Below are positions 55,339 through 64,000 of a stretch of DNA of 64,000 nucleotides, piece by piece. The translations under genes and the position numbers were made by a program. The notes under the pieces were generated by a model. The model was not told the DNA's origin, made no database searches, and was given only the letters and a program-made list of their open reading frames with translations. Source of the stretch: an uncultured delta proteobacterium (GTDB taxonomy: Bacteria; Desulfobacterota; Binatia; Binatales; Binataceae); assembly GCA_963765675.1 (NCBI GenBank), contig CAVXXK010000006.1, forward strand, positions 352,001 through 416,000. Direction: 5' to 3'. Position 1 is the first letter of the stretch. Every line of letters starts with the position of its first letter.

Positions 55339-56124
55339 ATGTGTACGCTTGCGATTTACTTCCGCGTGGCGCCCGAATGGCCGGTCATTATCGCTGCCAA
55401 TCGGGACGAATTTCTTGACCGCCCCGCTCTCGACCCGACCGTGCTCAACGATGACCCGCACGTCGTCGGCGGCAAGGACCTGCGCGCCGGAGGCACCTGG
55501 CTTGGCCTCAGCGAGAGCGGCCTCGTGTGCGGGCTCCTTAATCGCCCAGTCGTTGATGGCGGCAATGCTCGCGCGCGCTCGCGCGGGCTGCTCTGTCTGG
55601 ACGCGCTGCGCTGTGCGAGCGCTGGAGACGCGGCGCGTTTCGCCGCCGCCGAGAACGGCGCGAACTACAACCCGTTCAATCTGCTGATCGCCGCGCGTGA
55701 CGCCGCGTTCGTCGCGTACAACCGCAACGGCGAGATCGAGTTGGTCGAGCTGACGCCGGGACTTCATATGCTCTCGAATCAGAATGTCGACGACTTCGAG
55801 TGCCCCAAGATCAGCCGCTCATATGGACGCTTCACCGAGCTTGGCCAGCGCGCCGACTTCCGGCGCGACCCGATTGCGATGCGCGCCGAGCTTGGGCGAT
55901 TGCTTGCGGATCACAGCGCCGAAGTCGATCCGCGGACCGGCCGCACCAGTTCGCTCTGCCTGCATCTGGACAACTACGGCACGCGATCCTCGAGCATGAT
56001 CTTTCTCGGCCGTGACCCCGATCGCGTCGAGCATTTCTTCGCGCCCGGAGCGCCGTGCAAGACCGCGTACGTGCAAGCCGCGACGCCGCATCCGGCGCAT
56101 CGCGCGGTGGCTCACGGACGGTAG
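55339..56124 (+). CDS. NRDE/TANGO2 family protein
   Basis: MCT N-terminus, AANRDEF, GGTWLG, SRG, YGTRSS. Confidence 0.92.
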   Translation: MCTLAIYFRVAPEWPVIIAANRDEFLDRPALDPTVLNDDPHVVGGKDLRAGGTWLGLSESGLVCGLLNRPVVDGGNARARSRGLLCLDALRCASAGDAARFAAAENGANYNPFNLLIAARDAAFVAYNRNGEIELVELTPGLHMLSNQNVDDFECPKISRSYGRFTELGQRADFRRDPIAMRAELGRLLADHSAEVDPRTGRTSSLCLHLDNYGTRSSSMIFLGRDPDRVEHFFAPGAPCKTAYVQAATPHPAHRAVAHGR

Positions 56125-56306
56125 TAGCCGACGACGCCCGCGATAACAAAACAGATGATCGCGATCGCTCCGCAGGCCAGGAAAATCGAGGCGAGAAAAG
56201 GCGGCTCAATCACGAAGAACAGCACAACGCCGGAGACGAGCGCAAAGAAGCTCGCGATAATCGCCACAACAACGCACATCCGCCGCACCTGCGCCGAAAT
56301 CGTCAT
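56112..56306 (-). CDS. Small two-TM hypothetical membrane protein
   Basis: 64 aa with two hydrophobic helices; fills the gap between annotated genes. Confidence 0.5.
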   Translation of the reverse strand: MTISAQVRRMCVVVAIIASFFALVSGVVLFFVIEPPFLASIFLACGAIAIICFVIAGVVGYYRP

Positions 56307-56367
56307 GGCAGATTACGGAGCTCCGCGGATGGATTTACGCGAGCGGGCGCGCCTGTTAGAAGTTCCG

Positions 56368-57487
56368 TGATGATCATTCCGCGCAACCCCTGCCTTCGGG
56401 TAGCGATTCCCGCTGTGCTCCTAATCGCGGTCGCTCTTTGTACCGCGCCCGCTGTGCGCGCTCAATCAGCCCCGGTCGTTGGAACCGGAAGCCTCGGCCA
56501 GGCCGACCTCAACTGGCAGCAGCGTTTTCTCGGAATTCTGCCGCTGGTCAAGCCCGATCCGAAAGACCCGGTGGTGGTCACGGTGGACGGCCATCCGATA
56601 ACCGCCGCGCGAGATCACCGACTACGCGCGGACCGAGCGGCAGATGATCAACGCGACTTCGAGCGAAGAGACCAAAGCGGTCTTCAAGGACGCTACCGAA
56701 AATCTGATCAATCGCCAGCTTCTGATCGACGAGGCCGCGCGGCGCAAAATCGTGATTCCCGATCCCGAGGTGGCCGAGCGGGCGCGCGAGTTCAAAGTCT
56801 CCGGCGGAGACTCGAACAGTCTCCCGGGCGCCGCGCCGGATCCGCAGTTGATCGAGCAAGTGCGCGGCTCGATGATGATCGAGAAGATGTTCGACGATAT
56901 CTTTCGCGAGCAGAAAGTCCGCCCGACCGACGCGCAGATCAAGCAGTACTACGACCAGCATCGCGATTTATTCGTCAAGGATCCGGGCGAGGTGAGAATC
57001 TCGCATGTCGCGGTCAAGCTGCCCGACAATCCGACCGACGCGCAAAAGGCCGCCGCCCACGACAAGATCCTGAAACTCTACAAAGAGGCGCAACACGCCA
57101 AGGACTTCGCCGCGTTCGCGAAGGCAAACTCGGAGGACAGCCAGTCGGCCGCCAAGGGAGGGGACCTCGGCTATTTTCATCCGGGCCAGTTGCCGCCCGT
57201 GGTCGAGAAGGCGGTTTTTGCGACCCCGGTCGGGCACCTCACGGAGATTTTCGAATCCAATCTCGGCTACAGCTTTATCAAGGTGACCGCGCGCCAGGGT
57301 GAGGACTTCCTGGCGCAGAAGGAAGTCCAGCCGAAAATCGCGATGGTGTTGCTCGACTACAATGAAGACGCCGTCGTGAAGAAAGACGCTCGAACAGTTG
57401 CAGCGCAAAGCGAAGATTGAATTCCGCAAGCAGCCCGGCGCGGCCGCGCCATCGCTCTCGGAGTCTGGTGAGCAAGCTCCCGACTGA
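56368..57487 (+). CDS. SurA/PrsA-like parvulin peptidyl-prolyl isomerase; frameshifts near 56607 and 57384
   Basis: Signal peptide, VVTVDGHPIT, then ISHVAV, FAAFAKANSED..SAAKGGDLG; correcting the second shift gives ...LQRKAKIEF...stop at 57487. Confidence 0.82.
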
Positions 57488-58342
57488 AATTTCCGCCGCG
57501 TTGATCGAGGACATTAACCGCACTCGCGGCACCAGCTTTCGTATCGCGCGCGCACGGCGCTCGCGGGCGAGTCGGGTGCGACCAGGATTATCCTCGATCA
57601 GAACGAACGAGAGCATCTTCTAAAATGGGGCTCGGGCGATGAGTTCCGCCTCTACGACGTCATCGCAATCACTACCGAGCTGGCGCGCCGCAACTATCCG
57701 CTGCCGGCCTATCTGCTGACAGGCGACAACCTCGATCTCAGATGGACGATTCGTCCGATGCTGCCAGGCCGCTCGATGGGCATCCTCGATGAGCGCTACC
57801 TCGCCCGGATTCTGGAGCTCAACGAGGCGCAGGCCGGCGCGGCTTCGTCTCTATCAGGAGATTGGCCGGCGAGGATCGTCGAAAGCATTCTGGACGGATT
57901 TCAAGAATGGTGCATTCTCGACACTTTTAGAAATCACTCGGCCGAGACAGCCGCGATGTTGTCGCAGATGCAGGAGCACGCTCGCGCCGCCGAGCGCTCG
58001 CACGTTGAGGCGCACGACGCGGTGCATTTCGATTTCAATCCGCAGAATATTCTGGTCGATGACGGCGCCATCACCGCCGTCATCGATTGGGAAGGATGCT
58101 GCCCTGGCGACCGCGCGTTCGACCTCGCGACGCTGTTGTTCTACTCGTACGACCGCGCGGAAATTCGTTCGTGTCTGCAGGAGCGTATGCGCAAACTCGC
58201 GTCCGCTGAGGCAACCGCGCTATATCTTTCGCACATGATAGTCCGGCAGCTCGATTGGTCGATTCGGCGTCACGCCGTGCCGACGGTTCAGCGCTACCTT
58301 ACGGTTGCACGGGATATCCTGCGCGACCTTCGCGCGAGCTAG
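57468..58342 (+). CDS. Aminoglycoside phosphotransferase/choline kinase-like protein; probable frameshift near 57550
   Basis: VHFDFNPQNIL and VIDWE motifs; the N-lobe (HLLKWG...YPLP) is in frame upstream of 57758; GTG at 57468 is in another frame. Confidence 0.7.
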
Positions 58343-59034
58343 CTCGGCTGACGCGCATATCGCGTCGGGTCGGGGACTCGCGCGGCGGCGAAACCTTGCG
58401 CTCGCTCCGCGCATTTGGTGCATCGCCCGCAATGCGTCGAGCCGCGAGGACTTGCGCACGTCAGCGTCAGCTCCAGGTGCAGCGCCCTGCCCTTCCTTAT
58501 GACTTGCGCCTTGGTCATCCCGGCAAATGGAGTTCGGATACGAAGCGGAAGTCCGACGCCGAGCAGAACCGCGCGCTCGACCGCGCGAAAGAATTGCGGG
58601 CGCGCGTCGGGGAACGGATTCGACTCGAGCGGAGCCATCGCGATTTCTCCGATTCGGTTGTGTGCGCAGAAGATCGCGGCCTTCACGAGCAGGCTCAAGT
58701 TGCGGCCGACGATATAGTTGGATTCGACTTTCGCACGATAGCCGGGAACGCCCCGGCCGGTGACACTCCAATGCTCGCGCGCGACATCGGTCATTGGAAG
58801 ATCGAGAACTGCAACCGGCTCGATTCGCGAGCTCGCGAGCGTCGCGATAAATTTTCTCAGCGTTGCGAGCTCAGCGCGCTCCCACTTAAGCCCGGCTCGC
58901 ACATAGACGGGAAAGACGTGACGGCCGCGACCAGCCAGCTCTGCGAGCATAACCGAGCTGTCGAGACCGCCGCTCGCGAGCACCGCAATTCGGGCGCGAA
59001 TCGGGGAAATGCGAAAGTTGCGAGCGGCGCTCAC
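58339..59034 (-). CDS. queC: 7-cyano-7-deazaguanine synthase
   Basis: SGGLDSS, GRN, FPD, TKAQVI, C-x8-CGRCTKC; GTG start overlapping the upstream stop. Confidence 0.82.
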   Translation of the reverse strand: MSAARNFRISPIRARIAVLASGGLDSSVMLAELAGRGRHVFPVYVRAGLKWERAELATLRKFIATLASSRIEPVAVLDLPMTDVAREHWSVTGRGVPGYRAKVESNYIVGRNLSLLVKAAIFCAHNRIGEIAMAPLESNPFPDARPQFFRAVERAVLLGVGLPLRIRTPFAGMTKAQVIRKGRALHLELTLTCASPRGSTHCGRCTKCAERAQGFAAARVPDPTRYARQPS

Positions 59035-59765
59035 GCGATCAGACGGCCGCCGTCGAGCACTATAGTGGAGCCGGTCGCGAAGTCGGTGCCCTCGCATAAG
59101 AACAAGATCGCGTTGGCGACGTCACGCGGCGAGCCCATCTTCTTGGTGAGCGTTCCCGCTACCATCCGCGTAATCTCGTCGGGCCCGTAGTCCTCAGGTG
59201 CGAGGACCGGTCCTAGCGCGACGCAGTTCACCTGCACCTCGGGAGCAAGCGCCTTCGCGAGCGAGCGCGTCAGTCCGATCACGCCGGTCTTGGAGACCGT
59301 GTACGGCAGATAATTGTTGTACGGGCGGATACCTGCCCAATCGCCGATATTAACGATCTTGCCGGCGCCCTGCTTGCGCATGTGCGCACCAGCGAACTTC
59401 GCGAGAAAAAACGGCGCCTTCAAGTTGATGTTGAGATTCGCGTCCCAGTCGCGTTCGGTCACTTCCTCGATTGGCTTGCGATAGAACACCGACGCCGAGT
59501 TGACCAGCACGTCGATTCGGCCGAAGTCCGCGACGACCGCCGCGACCATCGCCTCGATCTGCGCGACGCTTTCGAGATCGGCGTGAAAGGATTTCGCGTG
59601 CGCGCCAACCTCCGTGATCTCGCGCGTTGCCGCGTCAGCCTCGGCGCTCGAGGTGCGGTAATGCACGGCGATATCCGCTCCGCGCTCGGCCAGCGCCAGC
59701 GCGATCGCGCGGCCGACGCGCCGCCCCGCGCCGGTGACCAGCGCGACTTTCCCTTTAAGTTCCAT
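59031..59765 (-). CDS. Pteridine reductase-like SDR (FolM/PTR1 type)
   Basis: TGAGRRVG, VHYRTS, VNSAS, NIGD, YTVSK. Confidence 0.8.
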   Translation of the reverse strand: MELKGKVALVTGAGRRVGRAIALALAERGADIAVHYRTSSAEADAATREITEVGAHAKSFHADLESVAQIEAMVAAVVADFGRIDVLVNSASVFYRKPIEEVTERDWDANLNINLKAPFFLAKFAGAHMRKQGAGKIVNIGDWAGIRPYNNYLPYTVSKTGVIGLTRSLAKALAPEVQVNCVALGPVLAPEDYGPDEITRMVAGTLTKKMGSPRDVANAILFLCEGTDFATGSTIVLDGGRLIA

Positions 59766-59790
59766 CCGGTTTCGTCAGGCGCGCGCGATT

Positions 59791-61065
59791 TCAGTTTTGC
59801 GAGAGCTTCTGGATCGCCTTGGCCAGCGCGAGGTTGTCGCTATGCCCGGTCTTCGAGGCGGTGATGTGCGCGAATATCGGCCGGCCGAGCAGATACAGGT
59901 CGCCGATCAGGTCCAGCACCTTGTGCCGCGCAAACTCATCAGGAAACCGCAGCGTGGTGTTCACTACTTTCTGTTCGTCAACCAGGATCGCGTTGTCGAG
60001 CCGCGCGCCGCTACCCAGGCCCATCTCGTTGAGCTTGCGGAACTCGCGCACCGACCCAAACGTTCGCGCGGGTGCGATTTCTTTGGTGTACGCGTCGGGC
60101 GAAGTCAATTCGAAGTGTACCTTCTGCGCGCCGATCGGTTTCGGGTATTCGAGGATGTAATCGATAATCAGATGATCGGCGGGCTCCACAGCGATAAATT
60201 CGCGGCCCACGCCTTCCTCTCCAATCACAAATTTTTGATTGATCCGGATCGGCGCGATGAGCGCGGCCTGATCGGTGACTCCGACCTCTTCGATATGCTT
60301 GCAGAACTCGAGCGACGAACCGTCGAGCGCCGGCACTTCCTCATCGGTCTTGACCAGCAGATTGGTGATCCCAAACGCGTGCAGGGCCGACATCAAATGT
60401 TCGACCGTGCGCACTGAGCGGCCGCCCGACGCGAGCGTGGTGTTATACGCGGTATCGACCACGTTCTCGACCCGAACCTCGACCGCGATATCGTCGGAGA
60501 GCGAGGAGAAGACAATTCCGAATCCAATCGGCGCCGGATGCAGGATCACTCCGGTCTTGAGGCCGGTGTGCAGCCCTTGCCCGCCGAGCACGATCGAGCG
60601 CGCGATTGTGCGCTGCGCGAGCGCGCCGCGTTTGACGCGCGCCTGCGCGGACGGCAGCTCACCGGAAGGAGCGACTGCGCGGTCGCCGAGCGGTGCGGCG
60701 CTGCCACCGTCGAGTGCGCGCGAAATCGACGCGAGCAGGCCGTCAACTGAAAACGGTTTCTGGATAAAATCCGCCGCGCCGAGCTTGGTTGCCGCCACCG
60801 CGCTCTGAATATTCGCATGGCCTGAAATCATGATCACCGGTACTGCAGGCTGTTCGGACTTGATCCGCCGCAGAAGCTCGATCCCGTCGAGCTCGGGCAT
60901 CCATACGTCGAGCAAAACGATCGACGGCGCCTCGCGATGAATCAAATCCATCACGCCCGGCGCGTCTCCCGTGTCAACCACCCGGAATCCTTCGTCGCTT
61001 AATATTCCACGTATCGATGATCGGATCCGCTCCTCGTCATCCACCACCAGCACGGTTTCGTTCAC
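59791..61065 (-). CDS. lpxC: Receiver domain-LpxC fusion (UDP-3-O-acyl-GlcNAc deacetylase with N-terminal REC)
   Basis: aa 1-120 REC (D9-D10, D53, S81, K103); from aa 151 LpxC (QRTI, GLHTG, TVEH, PALDGS, APARTFG, HKVLD, GH). Confidence 0.93.
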   Translation of the reverse strand: MNETVLVVDDEERIRSSIRGILSDEGFRVVDTGDAPGVMDLIHREAPSIVLLDVWMPELDGIELLRRIKSEQPAVPVIMISGHANIQSAVAATKLGAADFIQKPFSVDGLLASISRALDGGSAAPLGDRAVAPSGELPSAQARVKRGALAQRTIARSIVLGGQGLHTGLKTGVILHPAPIGFGIVFSSLSDDIAVEVRVENVVDTAYNTTLASGGRSVRTVEHLMSALHAFGITNLLVKTDEEVPALDGSSLEFCKHIEEVGVTDQAALIAPIRINQKFVIGEEGVGREFIAVEPADHLIIDYILEYPKPIGAQKVHFELTSPDAYTKEIAPARTFGSVREFRKLNEMGLGSGARLDNAILVDEQKVVNTTLRFPDEFARHKVLDLIGDLYLLGRPIFAHITASKTGHSDNLALAKAIQKLSQN

Positions 61066-61150
61066 GATGCGTTCCTCTTCGCGGAAGATTTGGATCAGTG
61101 TTGTCGCGAGTTCCTGCTGACCGGAACGGCCGCTCGCGGCGAGATTCGCT

Positions 61151-63397
61151 TCAGCCGGCGGCTTTGGCGAATTGCTGCATTTTTATAGGAAACTCCATGA
61201 CAAATCTACTTCCACGCGGCTGATTGTCAATTACCCGCACAAAGCCGTGATGATCGGTCACGATCGCCGACACGATAGCGAGCCCAAGCCCTGTGCCGCC
61301 CTTCTTGCTCGAAAAGTAGGGCTCGAAAATCCGCGTGCGCAGCCGCGGGTCGATGCCGGGGCCGTTGTCTGCAACCTCGAGGACCAGAATCGAAGTCTCT
61401 CTGCGGATCGCGGTGCGCAGATCGATTCTCGGCTTATCGCCATTTTGCGCGAACGCGGTGGTCGCGCCGACAGCGTTGTCGAGCAGGTTCACCAGCGCGC
61501 GCTTGAGCGCCTCCCGATCGATCATCATCTGCGGCAGACCGGCGGCAAGGTTGGTGTTGAACTCGACCGCCGGATGCGCCGCGCGGAAGTTTGCCACCGT
61601 GTCGGCGACCAGCGCGTTCAGATCGCCCGGGACGGGATTCAGATGCGGCATCCGCGCGAAAGCGGAAAACTCGTTGACCAGATGCTTCAGCGCCTCGACC
61701 TCGCCGATAATCGTGCGCGTGCATTCTTCGACCAGCGGAGTATCGGGCGTTCCATCGCTGCGCCCGACCATCTGCCGGCGCATCCGTTCGGCGGAGAGCT
61801 GGATCGGAGTGAGCGGATTTTTTATTTCATGCGCGATTCGGCGCGCGACTTCGCGCCACGCTTCCATCCGCTCGACCTTTGCGATCTGGCTCACATCCTC
61901 GAAGAACAGAACCGAGCCGAGCGGCTCTCCCGCGCTGTCCGAAAGCGGGCTCGCCGTCAGCATCAACTCAGCTTCCGCGCCCGCGACTTCGAGCTTGACG
62001 GTAGAGCGCGCCTCGCTCGGGCTCGTCGCCGCCGCGAGCAGGTCGTCAAGCACGCGCGACAGAGCAGGTTGCATCGTGCGGCGGTAGTGAGTTCCGATGA
62101 CGCCGTGCGCCGTGACGCCGAGCAGGCGTTCCGCACAGGGATTTATCGTGGTCAGAATTCCCTGGGGGTCCAGGCCGACCACGCCGGCCGAGACATTCTC
62201 GAGCAGGGTTTCGGTGTAGCGGCGGCGCCGTTCGAGCTCGGCCGCTGAGCCGCGCAGATCCGCGGTCATCTGGTTAAAGGATTCAATTAGCTGGCCGATT
62301 TCGTCGTCGCGGATTCCCGCGATGGTGTAATCGAGATTGCCCGCCGCGATCGCCTGGGTGCCTTGCAGCAGCCGCTTGATCGGTCCGGTAATCCCGCGCG
62401 CCAGGTACATCCCGAACCAGCTCGCAAGCATCACGACCACCAGCCCGATCAGCACCAGCGCCAGGATGTAACTGTTGAGAATCGGGCCGCGCAGAATTCG
62501 AAGCTGAAAATAATCTTCCGCCGATCGCGAGATCCCCGCCGCGCGGGTGGCAAGACTCTTGGGCAGGTAGTAATCGACCACCACGGCGCCCACGACGGTG
62601 TCGGTCTCGGGCGTCGAGTAGATAGGCGCGGTGCCGCGAATCACGTCTGAGCTGCCCAGACGATCGGTGCGGGTCATCGCCTGTCCCTTCAAGGTTTCGA
62701 GCAGGATTTGCGCATCGGGCGAGACGCCGATCCCGGTCGGAGTCTTGGGGCTCAGCGCTATCAGGAGAAGCTTCCGATCGGCGGAGAATACCTCGATCGT
62801 GCCGAGATTGTATTCCTGCTGGTGCTGTTCGATGAAATGGCGCAGGCGCGCATGGTCCTCCGGCGCGAGCAGCTTTCGTGAAGAGATCTCTTCGGCCAGC
62901 ACGCGCGCGAAGTGCGCCGCGTTGTTGGCTGAGTTCAGATAATAGGTCTTTGCGATCTCGAGCGAATCGTCGAGTACCTGCTCGTACTCGGGGTTGAACC
63001 AACTACCGATATCCGCGTTCAAAAATACGCCCGAGACGTAGAGCAGGAATGCGCTCGGCACCAGCGCGACGGCGATAAATCCCGCCACCAGCCGCACCTG
63101 GAACTTCGAGCCGATGAGTCCGCGGCGGCGCTCGAAAATGACCTTGGCCAGATTTCTGCCGACCAGGAACAGCAGCAGCGCGAGCAGAAGGAAGCTGAGA
63201 TTGAAGAGCGAGATAACGGCGAGGTTCGAGGCGAGCGACGTATGCCGCGACAGCGGCGGCAACTCGGTCTGCGCGAAGACGAATGCGACCAGAATCGCGG
63301 CGGCGACTCCGACCGCGATCAACTCGCGCCGGCGCCGCTTTAGCTCGGCGCGCCGGAGGTTGAAATCGCGCGGCTCTGCCGCCATCTTTGCCGCCAT
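61151..63397 (-). CDS. NtrY-like membrane sensor histidine kinase (TM-periplasmic-HAMP-PAS-HisKA-HATPase)
   Basis: AWREVARRIAHEIKNPLTPIQLSAER H-box, NLLDNA, DNGPG, GTGLGL; HAMP and PAS segments. Confidence 0.92.
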   Translation of the reverse strand: MAAKMAAEPRDFNLRRAELKRRRRELIAVGVAAAILVAFVFAQTELPPLSRHTSLASNLAVISLFNLSFLLLALLLFLVGRNLAKVIFERRRGLIGSKFQVRLVAGFIAVALVPSAFLLYVSGVFLNADIGSWFNPEYEQVLDDSLEIAKTYYLNSANNAAHFARVLAEEISSRKLLAPEDHARLRHFIEQHQQEYNLGTIEVFSADRKLLLIALSPKTPTGIGVSPDAQILLETLKGQAMTRTDRLGSSDVIRGTAPIYSTPETDTVVGAVVVDYYLPKSLATRAAGISRSAEDYFQLRILRGPILNSYILALVLIGLVVVMLASWFGMYLARGITGPIKRLLQGTQAIAAGNLDYTIAGIRDDEIGQLIESFNQMTADLRGSAAELERRRRYTETLLENVSAGVVGLDPQGILTTINPCAERLLGVTAHGVIGTHYRRTMQPALSRVLDDLLAAATSPSEARSTVKLEVAGAEAELMLTASPLSDSAGEPLGSVLFFEDVSQIAKVERMEAWREVARRIAHEIKNPLTPIQLSAERMRRQMVGRSDGTPDTPLVEECTRTIIGEVEALKHLVNEFSAFARMPHLNPVPGDLNALVADTVANFRAAHPAVEFNTNLAAGLPQMMIDREALKRALVNLLDNAVGATTAFAQNGDKPRIDLRTAIRRETSILVLEVADNGPGIDPRLRTRIFEPYFSSKKGGTGLGLAIVSAIVTDHHGFVRVIDNQPRGSRFVMEFPIKMQQFAKAAG

Positions 63398-63399
63398 CG

Positions 63400-63612
63400 T
63401 CAGCGCCTGAAGATCGCGAAGATAATCGATAGGATAATGCTCGCAACCACGCAGCTAGCGAGAGGAAAATAGAGGCTGAAGTTGCCGCGCCTGACCTGGA
63501 TGTCGCCGGGCAGATGCCCGAATATCGGCACGTAGCCAAGCCCCCATAGCATCGAGCCTAGCGCGATCAGCACGAGTCCTATTGCGATCAGGCCCTTTCC
63601 AAACGGCGCCAT
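63400..63612 (-). CDS. DUF2905 family small membrane protein
   Basis: GHLPGDI...NFSLYFPLASC motif. Confidence 0.85.
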   Translation of the reverse strand: MAPFGKGLIAIGLVLIALGSMLWGLGYVPIFGHLPGDIQVRRGNFSLYFPLASCVVASIILSIIFAIFRR

Positions 63613-63690
63613 CGCGAATCTGCCTCAAGGCAGATTGTATAGCACGGCACGCCGTCGCAATACCGTCATTTGGCCGCGGCGGCAGGTCTC

Positions 63691-64000
63691 CTAAGCATGC
63701 GCATGATGCGGTCCCGCGGCTTCGCGGGCGGCCTTGTTCTCCTTGATTATCTTTTCGGCCACCGGCGGCGGCGCCTCTTCGTAGTGATCGAAACGTTGCT
63801 CGAACGATCCCCGTCCAGACGTGATCGAGCGAAGGTCGGGCGCGTATTTTAGTATTTCCGACATCGGCACCATCGCCTTGATCACCTGGCTCGCGCCCTT
63901 GCGATCCATCCCGAGCACTTTGCCGCGGCGCGAATTGAGATCGCCGATTACGTCGCCCATGCATTCGTCCGGGCAGGCGACCTCGATCGCGACGATCGGC
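63691..64000 (-). CDS. fusA: Elongation factor G family protein, C-terminal part (runs off the right edge)
   Basis: Domain V: [12 protein letters not shown]...[13 protein letters not shown]. Not followed by tuf, so possibly an EF-G2 paralog. Confidence 0.85.

Follow-up and report, generated by a model that had tools for sequence, protein, structure and literature searches.

REC-LpxC fusions in Binataceae and other bacteria: sequence evidence for a two-component system whose response regulator may be the lipid A enzyme itself

Outer-membrane biogenesis is controlled at LpxC, which is also a major target for antibiotics. Two kinds of system that bear on its control are already known, namely response regulators (RRs) with an enzymatic output and two-component systems that control lpxC transcription (NtrYX, DVU2934). 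The enzymatic regulators include CheB, which joins a receiver domain (REC) to a methylesterase, PleD and WspR (REC-GGDEF), and RpfG (REC-HD-GYP); as long as it is unphosphorylated, the CheB receiver covers the active site. RssB and CpdR couple receiver state to proteolysis, and NtrX is a regulator that lacks the GAFTGA motif. The subject here is a stretch of 64,000 nucleotides (nt) of a Binataceae genome (contig CAVXXK010000006.1, hereafter the window), whose minus strand carries an operon encoding an NtrY-like sensor histidine kinase (HK) and, after it, a single protein that consists of a receiver and LpxC. The source is a soil bacterium with a 4.5-Mb genome that is 95.6% complete.

In E. coli, LpxC is degraded through FtsH, LapB (YciM) and YejM, by way of a C-terminal degron and a tetratricopeptide repeat (TPR) adaptor, as described in a 2025 review of lipid A regulation (PMC12444477). 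The details of alternative systems of LpxC regulation are called 'still emerging' in that review. It also records that loss of NtrYX function in an R. sphaeroides mutant raises lpxC transcript ∼9-fold and lipopolysaccharide (LPS) 2-fold. NtrX itself is a DNA-binding regulator with pleiotropic effects, and lpxC, which it represses, is one of dozens of genes under its control. In D. vulgaris Hildenborough, the NtrC-type RR DVU2934 has lpxC as its single mapped target, and in S. fumaroxidans lpxC adjoins an operon orthologous to DVU2931/DVU2934, according to Rajeev et al. 2011 (PMC3333781).

The arrangement in the window makes it likely that the RR of this two-component system is LpxC itself and that the state of its receiver sets lipid A flux. 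The REC-LpxC fusion on which this reading builds is real and not an artefact. A preliminary description of the window reported one 424-amino-acid (aa) open reading frame (ORF) with a receiver, a linker, and a complete LpxC, and Pfam and NCBIfam agree on this content (59791..61065, minus strand). The Response_reg match (PF00072) scores 105.8 bits against a cut-off of 30.2, the PF03331 match spans model positions 1-267 of 268, and the NCBIfam lpxC model TIGR00325 scores 229.4 bits against a cut-off of 187.25. The key residues D9, D10, D53, S81, K103, E222-H223, H381-K382-D385, and H408 are all present at these numbers, as first described. The linker, put at ∼30 aa, measures 25-30 aa between receiver and LpxC, and the absence of an ATG within it extends to other start codons; no in-frame ATG, GTG, or TTG occurs at residues 100-158, and only at residue 159, where the LpxC fold has already begun, does a GTG follow.

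The assembly is of the metagenome type and the linker is GC-rich and of low complexity, features that would suit two genes wrongly joined by a linker indel, yet the chance of such an assembly or gene-calling artefact is negligible. All of the best 120 homologues (72-95% identity, 416-446 aa; Candidatus Binataceae or Binatus where named) carry both PF00072 and PF03331. Some of them lie on contigs of 1.6 to 3.8 Mb, a complete Binatia chromosome (L034) bears the fusion, and both domains occur together in 17 ESM Atlas clusters that each have at least 50 members. In total, both domains are retained in more than 180 independent homologues. The independent material over the window consists of short Logan contigs, most of them not spanning the linker. 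One such contig from an independent run bridges 60389-60768 and differs by substitutions and one in-frame 3-nt insertion only, which bears on the linker check proposed earlier and, with the lack of a start codon in the linker, argues against an indel. A sequence-archive search with words from the window listed no RNA dataset, and the best DNA datasets contain at most 0.33 of the sampled words; hence, they hold relatives and not this strain. Where databases name the fused proteins, the name is simply LpxC.

The fusion is also the only LpxC of its genome. The possibility of a second lpxC or a canonical ntrX was raised at the outset; the genome search gives one LpxC match only and no NtrX above the family cut-off. 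The same genome has one lpxB and two full-length lpxA genes above the family cut-off (304 and 293 bits). The two lpxA copies, at G000:C1:2105923-2106681 and G000:C3:54294-55046, compare with one lpxC and one lpxB. Across the sample of the window's class, a single LpxC locus is present in 81 of 81 genomes, with an open frame of at least 411 aa in 79; of the other two, one LpxC runs off a contig end and the other has a frameshift. Separate REC and LpxC genes in relatives, an outcome that would have spoken against the idea, are thus not what this class contains. In a 78%-complete genome of the class, the sole LpxC locus (G232:C5:524273-525078) is broken into pieces in different frames.

As the sole LpxC of both genome and class, the enzyme is presumably active, with the receiver always attached, and its sole-copy status in a genome that also has lpxA and lpxB points indirectly to a role as the pathway enzyme in the cell. 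This bears on a reversed signal, in which the LpxC domain would report substrate or product load and the protein would serve as a phosphate sink or feedback for the kinase and another regulator. Genomes with both a fusion and a separate sigma54 RR (L098/L059, L099/L050), in which one kinase could serve the two, would fit such a scheme, as would longer relatives that keep a helix-turn-helix (HTH) module. It is nevertheless very improbable, since, for lack of a second LpxC in the window's genome and class, the domain is presumably the working enzyme, the window protein has no DNA-binding module, and no NtrX-type partner lies beside the kinase.

Conservation of the two halves was scored in 186 fused receivers and 187 fused LpxC domains, drawn from 120 close relatives, 34 representatives at 50% identity, and 32 loci from several phyla. 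The fused receivers keep D53 in 184 of 186, D9 and D10 in 185 each, S/T81 in 186, F/Y100 in 184, and K103 in 184, counts that, like those for LpxC, are swollen by the 120 near relatives of the window protein at 72-95% identity and to that extent weaken the case. The fused LpxC domains keep E222, H223, H381, K382, and D385 in 187 of 187, D389 and H408 in 186, and T335 in 185. In alignment, the TVEH, ARTFG, RHKxLDxxGD, and GH motifs of the window LpxC are identical to those of P. aeruginosa LpxC. These residues are presumably the Zn ligands (His, His, Asp) and the catalytic Glu, His, Thr, Lys, and Asp, and the receiver quintet is taken to comprise two acidic residues, the phospho-acceptor Asp, a Ser/Thr, and a Lys. 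The fused receiver residues thus appear to be under selection, and both halves of the protein look functional.

The receiver could instead be a leftover, either a constitutive structural or dimerisation module or idle, with LpxC not regulated by phosphorylation. Three stand-alone LpxCs lie inside the fused clade, many fusions have no adjacent kinase, and the AAA+ and HTH modules decayed after fusion, so functional decay does occur in the family. Against this stand the acidic pocket, S/T, switch F/Y, and Lys, kept in 184-186 of 186 receivers across phyla, which is unexpected for a pseudo-receiver; the retention of a kinase orthologue even when unlinked (5/5); and the single LpxC locus in 81 of 81 class genomes. 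A leftover receiver is accordingly improbable, a little less so than reversed signalling, and for the window's lineage a vestigial receiver or reversed signalling is unlikely.

The NtrY-type kinase reported ahead of the fusion is a 748-aa ORF (61151..63397, minus strand) in which all expected domains are found by Pfam, in the order NtrY_N/dCache_3, HAMP, PAS, HisKA, and HATPase_c. Four transmembrane-like segments (residues 23-46, 54-88, 100-128, and 301-333) are arranged around a periplasmic region of ∼175 aa. The NtrY_N match is weak (30.5 bits vs 23.2, model positions 13-181 of 291), and the kinase's 25 best NCBIfam families shown include no NtrY-specific model; the top ones, LIC_11548 and AtoS, both score far below their cut-offs. 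The receiver is of the NtrC/NtrX kind, in line with the preliminary description: among solved structures, the Brucella NtrX receivers 4d6x and 5m7n come closest to it, and its best NCBIfam regulator family is NtrX (NF051870), at 127.5 bits against a cut-off of 600 and over residues 4-119 only. Membership of the fusion protein in NtrX is rejected on that score, and Pfam shows no AAA+ or HTH; the likeness is confined to the receiver. The locus resembles alphaproteobacterial NtrY/NtrX in architecture: the kinase has the NtrY-like domain layout and the receiver is nearest to NtrX structures, but the kinase's partner is not an NtrX.

Synteny with the kinase, proposed earlier as a check, holds only in part across genomes, with a member of the kinase family directly upstream in 11 of 32 fused loci. 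The window's class adds three genomes (G110, G143, and G076) in which the kinase likewise comes immediately before the fusion. Full-length orthologues, with membrane and periplasmic parts included (275-722 bits), adjoin fused or unfused lpxC systems in other phyla. The 'orphan' fusion genomes, which have no adjacent kinase, encode a full-length orthologue elsewhere in five of five cases (252-529 bits); the next-best kinase paralogue in the window's genome reaches 112.7 bits over residues 333-738 only, the cytoplasmic part. The unlinked kinase is still paired with a sigma54 regulator in two of those five genomes, and in one (Terriglobia) also with a plain lpxC. This pattern of retention suggests that the kinase is a conserved partner of the fusion. 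A triple HK-REC-LpxC fusion, suggested by long frames in G110, G143, and G076 (1378, 1423, and 1007 aa, respectively), was considered and rejected, as the kinase is in a different frame; the long frames represent a stop-free alternative frame across a GC-rich gene.

The operon probably begins with a gene for a small DUF2905 membrane protein, whose stop lies 3 nt ahead of the kinase start. A DUF2905 homologue is directly upstream of the kinase also in L027, L028, L036, and L038 (Binataceae, Syntrophobacteraceae, and a 'Deltaproteobacteria' metagenome-assembled genome (MAG)), and the protein may be an accessory membrane partner of the kinase. The fusion has a GTG start at 61065 with a Shine-Dalgarno-like GAGGAA ∼7 nt ahead of it, and a terminator scan of the 85-nt spacer between kinase and fusion found no terminator-like site. 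A promoter-like TTGACA-16-TAGATT (10/12 matches; 61230..61203, minus strand) sits ∼140 nt ahead of the fusion start, still within the 3' part of the kinase gene, and could give the fusion a promoter of its own, so that its expression would not be tied to that of the kinase.

In the proposed mechanism, the membrane kinase would sense a periplasmic or envelope signal, or one detected by its PAS domain, and would autophosphorylate on His523. The phosphoryl group would pass from His523 to Asp53 of the receiver joined to LpxC, and the receiver state would set the deacetylation of UDP-3-O-acyl-GlcNAc, hence the flux into lipid A, without a transcription step. The preferred version is CheB-like: the unphosphorylated receiver would dock on LpxC and keep activity low, and phosphorylation would release or activate the enzyme. 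Activation of this kind is favoured because the ancestral circuit appears to have been positive, with a phosphorylated sigma54 activator driving lpxC transcription. Phosphotransfer, the effect of phosphorylation on activity, and the sign of that effect are inferred. The full version, in which phosphorylation of Asp53 acts as a direct gate on LpxC catalysis, FtsH/LapB-type proteolysis is replaced, and the system arose by fusion of a sigma54 regulator and loss of modules, is rated slightly above an even chance. The fusion shares with CheB, PleD/WspR, and RpfG an N-terminal receiver, a flexible linker, and a C-terminal enzyme, and structure prediction suggests fixed packing here too; it differs in that its output is a Zn-dependent deacetylase of an essential biosynthetic pathway and not a signalling enzyme.

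In the AlphaFold2 (AF2) model of the window fusion, the receiver adopts the (beta-alpha)5 fold at a predicted local distance difference test (pLDDT) score of 84-95, and the LpxC half fits A. aeolicus LpxC (1yh8, 1p42) with a target-normalised template modelling (TM) score of 0.95 and a root-mean-square deviation of 1.7 Å. Structure comparison found no solved structure that covers both domains; the best query-normalised TM score, 0.61, comes from the LpxC part alone. The predicted TM score (pTM) is 0.86 for the window protein, despite its disordered linker, and 0.80 for a divergent Thermoanaerobaculia fusion modelled from an alignment without Binataceae rows. Two well-folded, mutually unplaced domains of these sizes would be expected to score ∼0.63-0.65 by the authors' own estimate, and the higher values suggest a fixed arrangement of REC on the enzyme; such packing, as read from pTM, is only a hint. 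A two-chain prediction of LpxC 147-424 with REC 1-121, run without controls, gave ipSAE values of 0.00 and 0.01 and a mark of 0.32 and counts neither way on binding.

Among the positions that distinguish the LpxC domains of the fused clade from plain LpxCs are Gly172 (99% vs 1%), Lys239 (99% vs 2%), and Cys255 (96% vs 3%). Position 239 is Lys in the fused clade and mostly Glu or Asp in plain LpxCs. The alignment makes G172, K239, and C255 candidate contact or regulatory positions. In the model of the Thermoanaerobaculia fusion L043 (m7671594a31a1), residues 111-150 form a linker made of an extended alpha5 and a second helix at 137-150, whereas the linker of the window protein is disordered; the predicted helices may be a remnant of lost modules or a genuine connector.

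The main rival is control of stability. Receiver phosphorylation would set the amount of LpxC, as a degradation or localisation tag that replaces the FtsH/LapB route. Proteolysis is the best-known control of LpxC according to the 2025 review (PMC12444477). The conserved receiver residues fit such a tag equally well. A LapB profile search of the window's genome found no orthologue (best 24.8 bits vs a cut-off of 363), and the fusion protein has just 5 residues after the LpxC fold, so that E. coli-type control is unlikely here; both findings would also suit a tag in its place. Like FtsH/LapB/YejM, the window system would act on LpxC after translation and so adjust the committed step of lipid A synthesis; it differs in that it has neither a LapB orthologue nor a tail beyond the LpxC fold. 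On the other side, nothing points to a protease or adaptor, no protease gene is present among the neighbours annotated in 55339-64000, and the predicted, confident inter-domain placement would fit steric or allosteric control better. Control of amount is on balance unlikely, although it has a better chance than any other rival, and direct action of the receiver on the enzyme remains the preferred reading.

LpxC is known to tolerate an added domain. The bifunctional LpxC/FabZ family (NF009667) is likewise a natural LpxC fusion, but its partner is a C-terminal fatty-acid dehydratase, which represents metabolic coupling and not signalling. Membership of the window protein in this family is rejected, as it scores 200.7 bits against a cut-off of 465 over the LpxC part only.

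Identification of the wider family relies on an exhaustive search over 1.84 billion representatives followed by Pfam scans of the matches. Three architectures are found: REC-linker-LpxC (412-461 aa), REC with a 62-116-aa insert before LpxC (457-505 aa), and REC-Sigma54_activat-AAA_lid-LpxC (650-736 aa). The gap between REC and LpxC is 24-57 aa in the short forms, 62-116 aa in the intermediate forms, and 260-341 aa in the long forms. The position of the linker in the window protein is the site of AAA+ and/or HTH modules in its relatives. Among intermediate forms, HTH_8 is above the cut-off in P0136, just below it in P0141, and undetected in P0145 and P0149; a Fis-type HTH_8 is above the Pfam cut-off in five of the nine long forms tested. 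The proposed swap of a transcriptional output for an enzyme is supported and refined by these relatives, which carry the whole REC-AAA+-HTH regulator fused to LpxC, with the modules then lost.

A scan of one genome per species mapped 80 loci, chosen by similarity to the fused proteins. Nine are long fusions, in records named Thermodesulfobacteriota, Nitrospinota, and Desulfomonile, and 23 are short fusions, in records named Binatia, Syntrophobacteraceae, Thermodesulfovibrionia, Thermoanaerobaculia, Holophagae, and Terriglobia. A further 12 are unfused clusters, in which lpxC is followed by a kinase and then by a REC-AAA+ RR; in three, lpxC is near such a regulator on the opposite strand, and the remaining 33 have plain LpxC. 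Fusions are thus found in records named Thermodesulfobacteriota, Acidobacteriota, Nitrospinota, and Nitrospirota, and the cultured Desulfomonile tiedjei has a long form of 701 aa (P0309). Within the window's GTDB phylum, a contiguous REC and LpxC match is present in 26 of 201 sampled genomes, the window's own (G000) included; in another 22, an LpxC part of the fused type (46-53% identity) lies within an open frame of 450-837 aa, and the remaining LpxC matches listed are plain, at 35-44% identity. In one Thermodesulfobacteriota MAG (L023, 3005-5667), a long form occupies two overlapping frames, REC-AAA(N) and AAA(C)-LpxC, owing to either a frameshift or an assembly error. The pairs L059/L098 and L050/L099 each place an orphan REC-LpxC fusion and a separate sigma54-RR system within one genome; in such genomes, a single kinase may control a transcriptional output as well as a direct one.

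The trees come from quick searches, are unrooted, and carry only Shimodaira-Hasegawa-like approximate likelihood ratio test (SH-aLRT) support. In the LpxC tree, 33 of 33 fused domains lie on one side of a branch with a support of 100, apart from 47 unfused domains, and the long and short forms are interleaved. A wider LpxC tree of 175 rows, to which the 94 closest plain LpxCs were added, has a clade with a support of 97 that comprises all 67 fused domains and three stand-alone LpxCs. In the REC tree, the 33 fused receivers and the 12 receivers of unfused-cluster RRs form one clade (98), which excludes eight other NtrC-type regulators of the window's genome.

The sequences of the 12 unfused-cluster RRs indicate that they are ordinary sigma54 activators. 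Ten have a GAFTGA-type motif and 11 a Walker B, and the L080 regulator, cut by a contig end, explains one missing GAFTGA and the sole absence of Walker B. In nine of the 12 evaluable unfused loci, lpxC is preceded at a distance of 39-76 nt by a sigma54 -24/-12 element, against a background of 0.12 per kb. In contrast, a sigma54-like site lies before one of 31 fused genes, and the scan found none before linked kinases (0/11) and none in 58000-64000 of the window. The long fusions keep Walker A in 9/9 and have GAFTGA in 0/9 and Walker B in 0/9, a pattern also visible in a 15-row alignment, and they share the lack of GAFTGA with NtrX. The window protein itself is no sigma54 activator (bacterial enhancer-binding protein, bEBP), as Pfam finds no AAA+ domain in it.

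The simplest reading is that a whole regulator was fused to LpxC once and that AAA+ and HTH were later lost several times, since repeated re-insertion of a homologous AAA+ at the same site is implausible. The likely ancestor is a sigma54 activator encoded next to lpxC and not the pleiotropic NtrX. On the best reading, a regulator dedicated to lpxC transcription was joined to LpxC, its own target, and the kinase now acts on the enzyme, with transcriptional control apparently given up after fusion. A close described counterpart is DVU2931/DVU2934, a kinase and an NtrC-type regulator dedicated to lpxC. The 12 unfused loci share this layout, with GAFTGA RRs and a sigma54 promoter, and their receivers are the closest kin of the window receiver. 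The likeness of the window system to DVU2931/DVU2934 is drawn from published description and layout, and the two differ in that control in the latter is transcriptional via sigma54, whereas the window protein has no AAA+ or DNA-binding parts and its receiver is covalently attached to the enzyme.

The route by which the fusion formed is less direct. Unfused kinase-linked lpxC genes were considered as direct sisters of the fused LpxC and rejected, as their LpxCs scatter among plain ones. The fused LpxC clade stands apart on a long branch, and gene order differs, being lpxC-HK-RR in the unfused clusters and HK-RR::LpxC in the fused loci. The scattered LpxCs and the different gene order make a simple read-through fusion of neighbouring genes unlikely, and a duplication or translocation of lpxC is needed.

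Several observations, beside the make-up of the conservation set, weigh against receiver control of LpxC or limit its reach. The stand-alone LpxCs P0173, P0177, and P0203 (283-292 aa) nest in the fused clade, from which it appears that the enzyme can do without the receiver. Each of the three has its own Met and a short leader, and secondary fission or a mis-called start may explain them. The available upstream sequence contains no kinase for 21 of the 32 fused loci; for L016, L040, and L049, it is less than 2.3 kb. A plain LpxC is present beside the fusion in G034, in G199, and in one Terriglobia genome (L059 with L098), so the fusion need not carry the main flux there. The five of nine long forms that keep an HTH may still bind DNA, and their logic may differ. 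The sign and mode of control, whether of activity, stability, oligomeric state, or localisation, are guesses.

REC-LpxC fusions are widespread but overlooked, and their evolutionary path is unusually clear. In line with the earlier remark that no characterised example was known, literature searches found no published description of a REC-LpxC protein, although censuses of response regulators might still mention one. A receiver fused to LpxC is absent from the 2025 review of lipid A regulation (PMC12444477), in which the words 'receiver', 'fusion', and 'fused' never occur. Beyond Enterobacteria and a few model species, the fusion offers a simple answer to how LpxC could be regulated in large, little-studied groups of soil and sediment bacteria. 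If the proposed reading is true, lipid A flux would be a real-time output of an envelope-sensing kinase, and the committed step of LPS synthesis would have its first phospho-switch; the switch would be used in Binatia and, as fused forms, in several other phyla, and an essential biosynthetic enzyme would join the outputs of response regulators. The graded relatives show in stages how a transcription factor can become a direct regulator of its former target's product. Three findings are linked in this way, namely the repression of lpxC by NtrYX in Alphaproteobacteria, the targeting of lpxC by DVU2934 in Desulfovibrio, and the REC-LpxC fusions, which suggests an old, recurring connection of this kinase family with lipid A synthesis. 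The long form in the cultured Desulfomonile tiedjei makes the idea directly testable, and the proteins should be easily made in E. coli.

Table 1. Features of the kinase-fusion operon in the window (positions are those of the 64,000-nt stretch; residue numbers refer to the protein concerned).
Feature	Position	Strand	Details	Evidence
DUF2905 small membrane protein	63400..63612	-	70 aa	Pfam PF11146, 1.2e-21
NtrY-like sensor HK	61151..63397	-	748 aa	Pfam domains, hydropathy, motifs
Kinase periplasmic sensor region	62483..63010	-	∼residues 130-305, dCache_3-like	PF14827 dCache_3 27.3 bits; PF19312 NtrY_N 30.5 bits
Kinase HAMP	62252..62404	-	residues 332-382	PF00672, 5.6e-15
Kinase cytoplasmic PAS	61892..62212	-	residues 396-502	PF00989, 2e-10
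Kinase HisKA (dimerisation/phospho-acceptor)	61649..61858	-	H-box HEIKNPL, His523 at 61829-61831	PF00512, 2.3e-11
Kinase HATPase_c	61184..61519	-	N box DNA 640, G1 DNGPG 677, G2 GTGLGL 701	PF02518, 6.1e-22
Spacer, kinase stop to fusion start	61066..61150	-	85 nt	sequence
REC-LpxC fusion gene	59791..61065	-	424 aa, genome's only LpxC	ORF list, Pfam, NCBIfam, genome search
Receiver domain (REC)	60724..61053	-	residues 5-114; Asp53 codon 60907-60909; D9, D10, S81, F100, K103	PF00072, 1.8e-30
Ala/Pro/Gly-rich linker	60628..60702	-	residues 122-146, predicted disordered	pLDDT <50 across 122-146
LpxC deacetylase domain	59809..60615	-	residues 151-419	PF03331, 2.1e-82; TIGR00325 above cut-off
LpxC-domain sites	60397-60402; 59899-59925; 59842-59844	-	E222-H223; H381-K382-D385-D389; H408 (in the order of the positions); also T335-F336	

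The surroundings of the operon contain genes of varied type. A gene for an elongation factor G C-terminus lies at the window edge (63691-63999, minus strand). On the plus strand are a TANGO2-family gene (55339-56124), a PPIC-type/SurA-like peptidyl-prolyl isomerase (56644-57420), and an APH-type phosphotransferase fragment (57758-58342). A short-chain dehydrogenase/reductase (SDR) gene begins 25 nt after the fusion (58339-59765 on the minus strand, together with the next gene), and its best NCBIfam family is pteridine reductase, at 227.5 bits against a cut-off of 288. The gene that overlaps it is QueC-like, with 73.7 bits vs the QueC cut-off of 150.3 and a weak QatC match. This pair of SDR and QueC-like genes after the fusion is kept only in the Binataceae loci L038 and L046.

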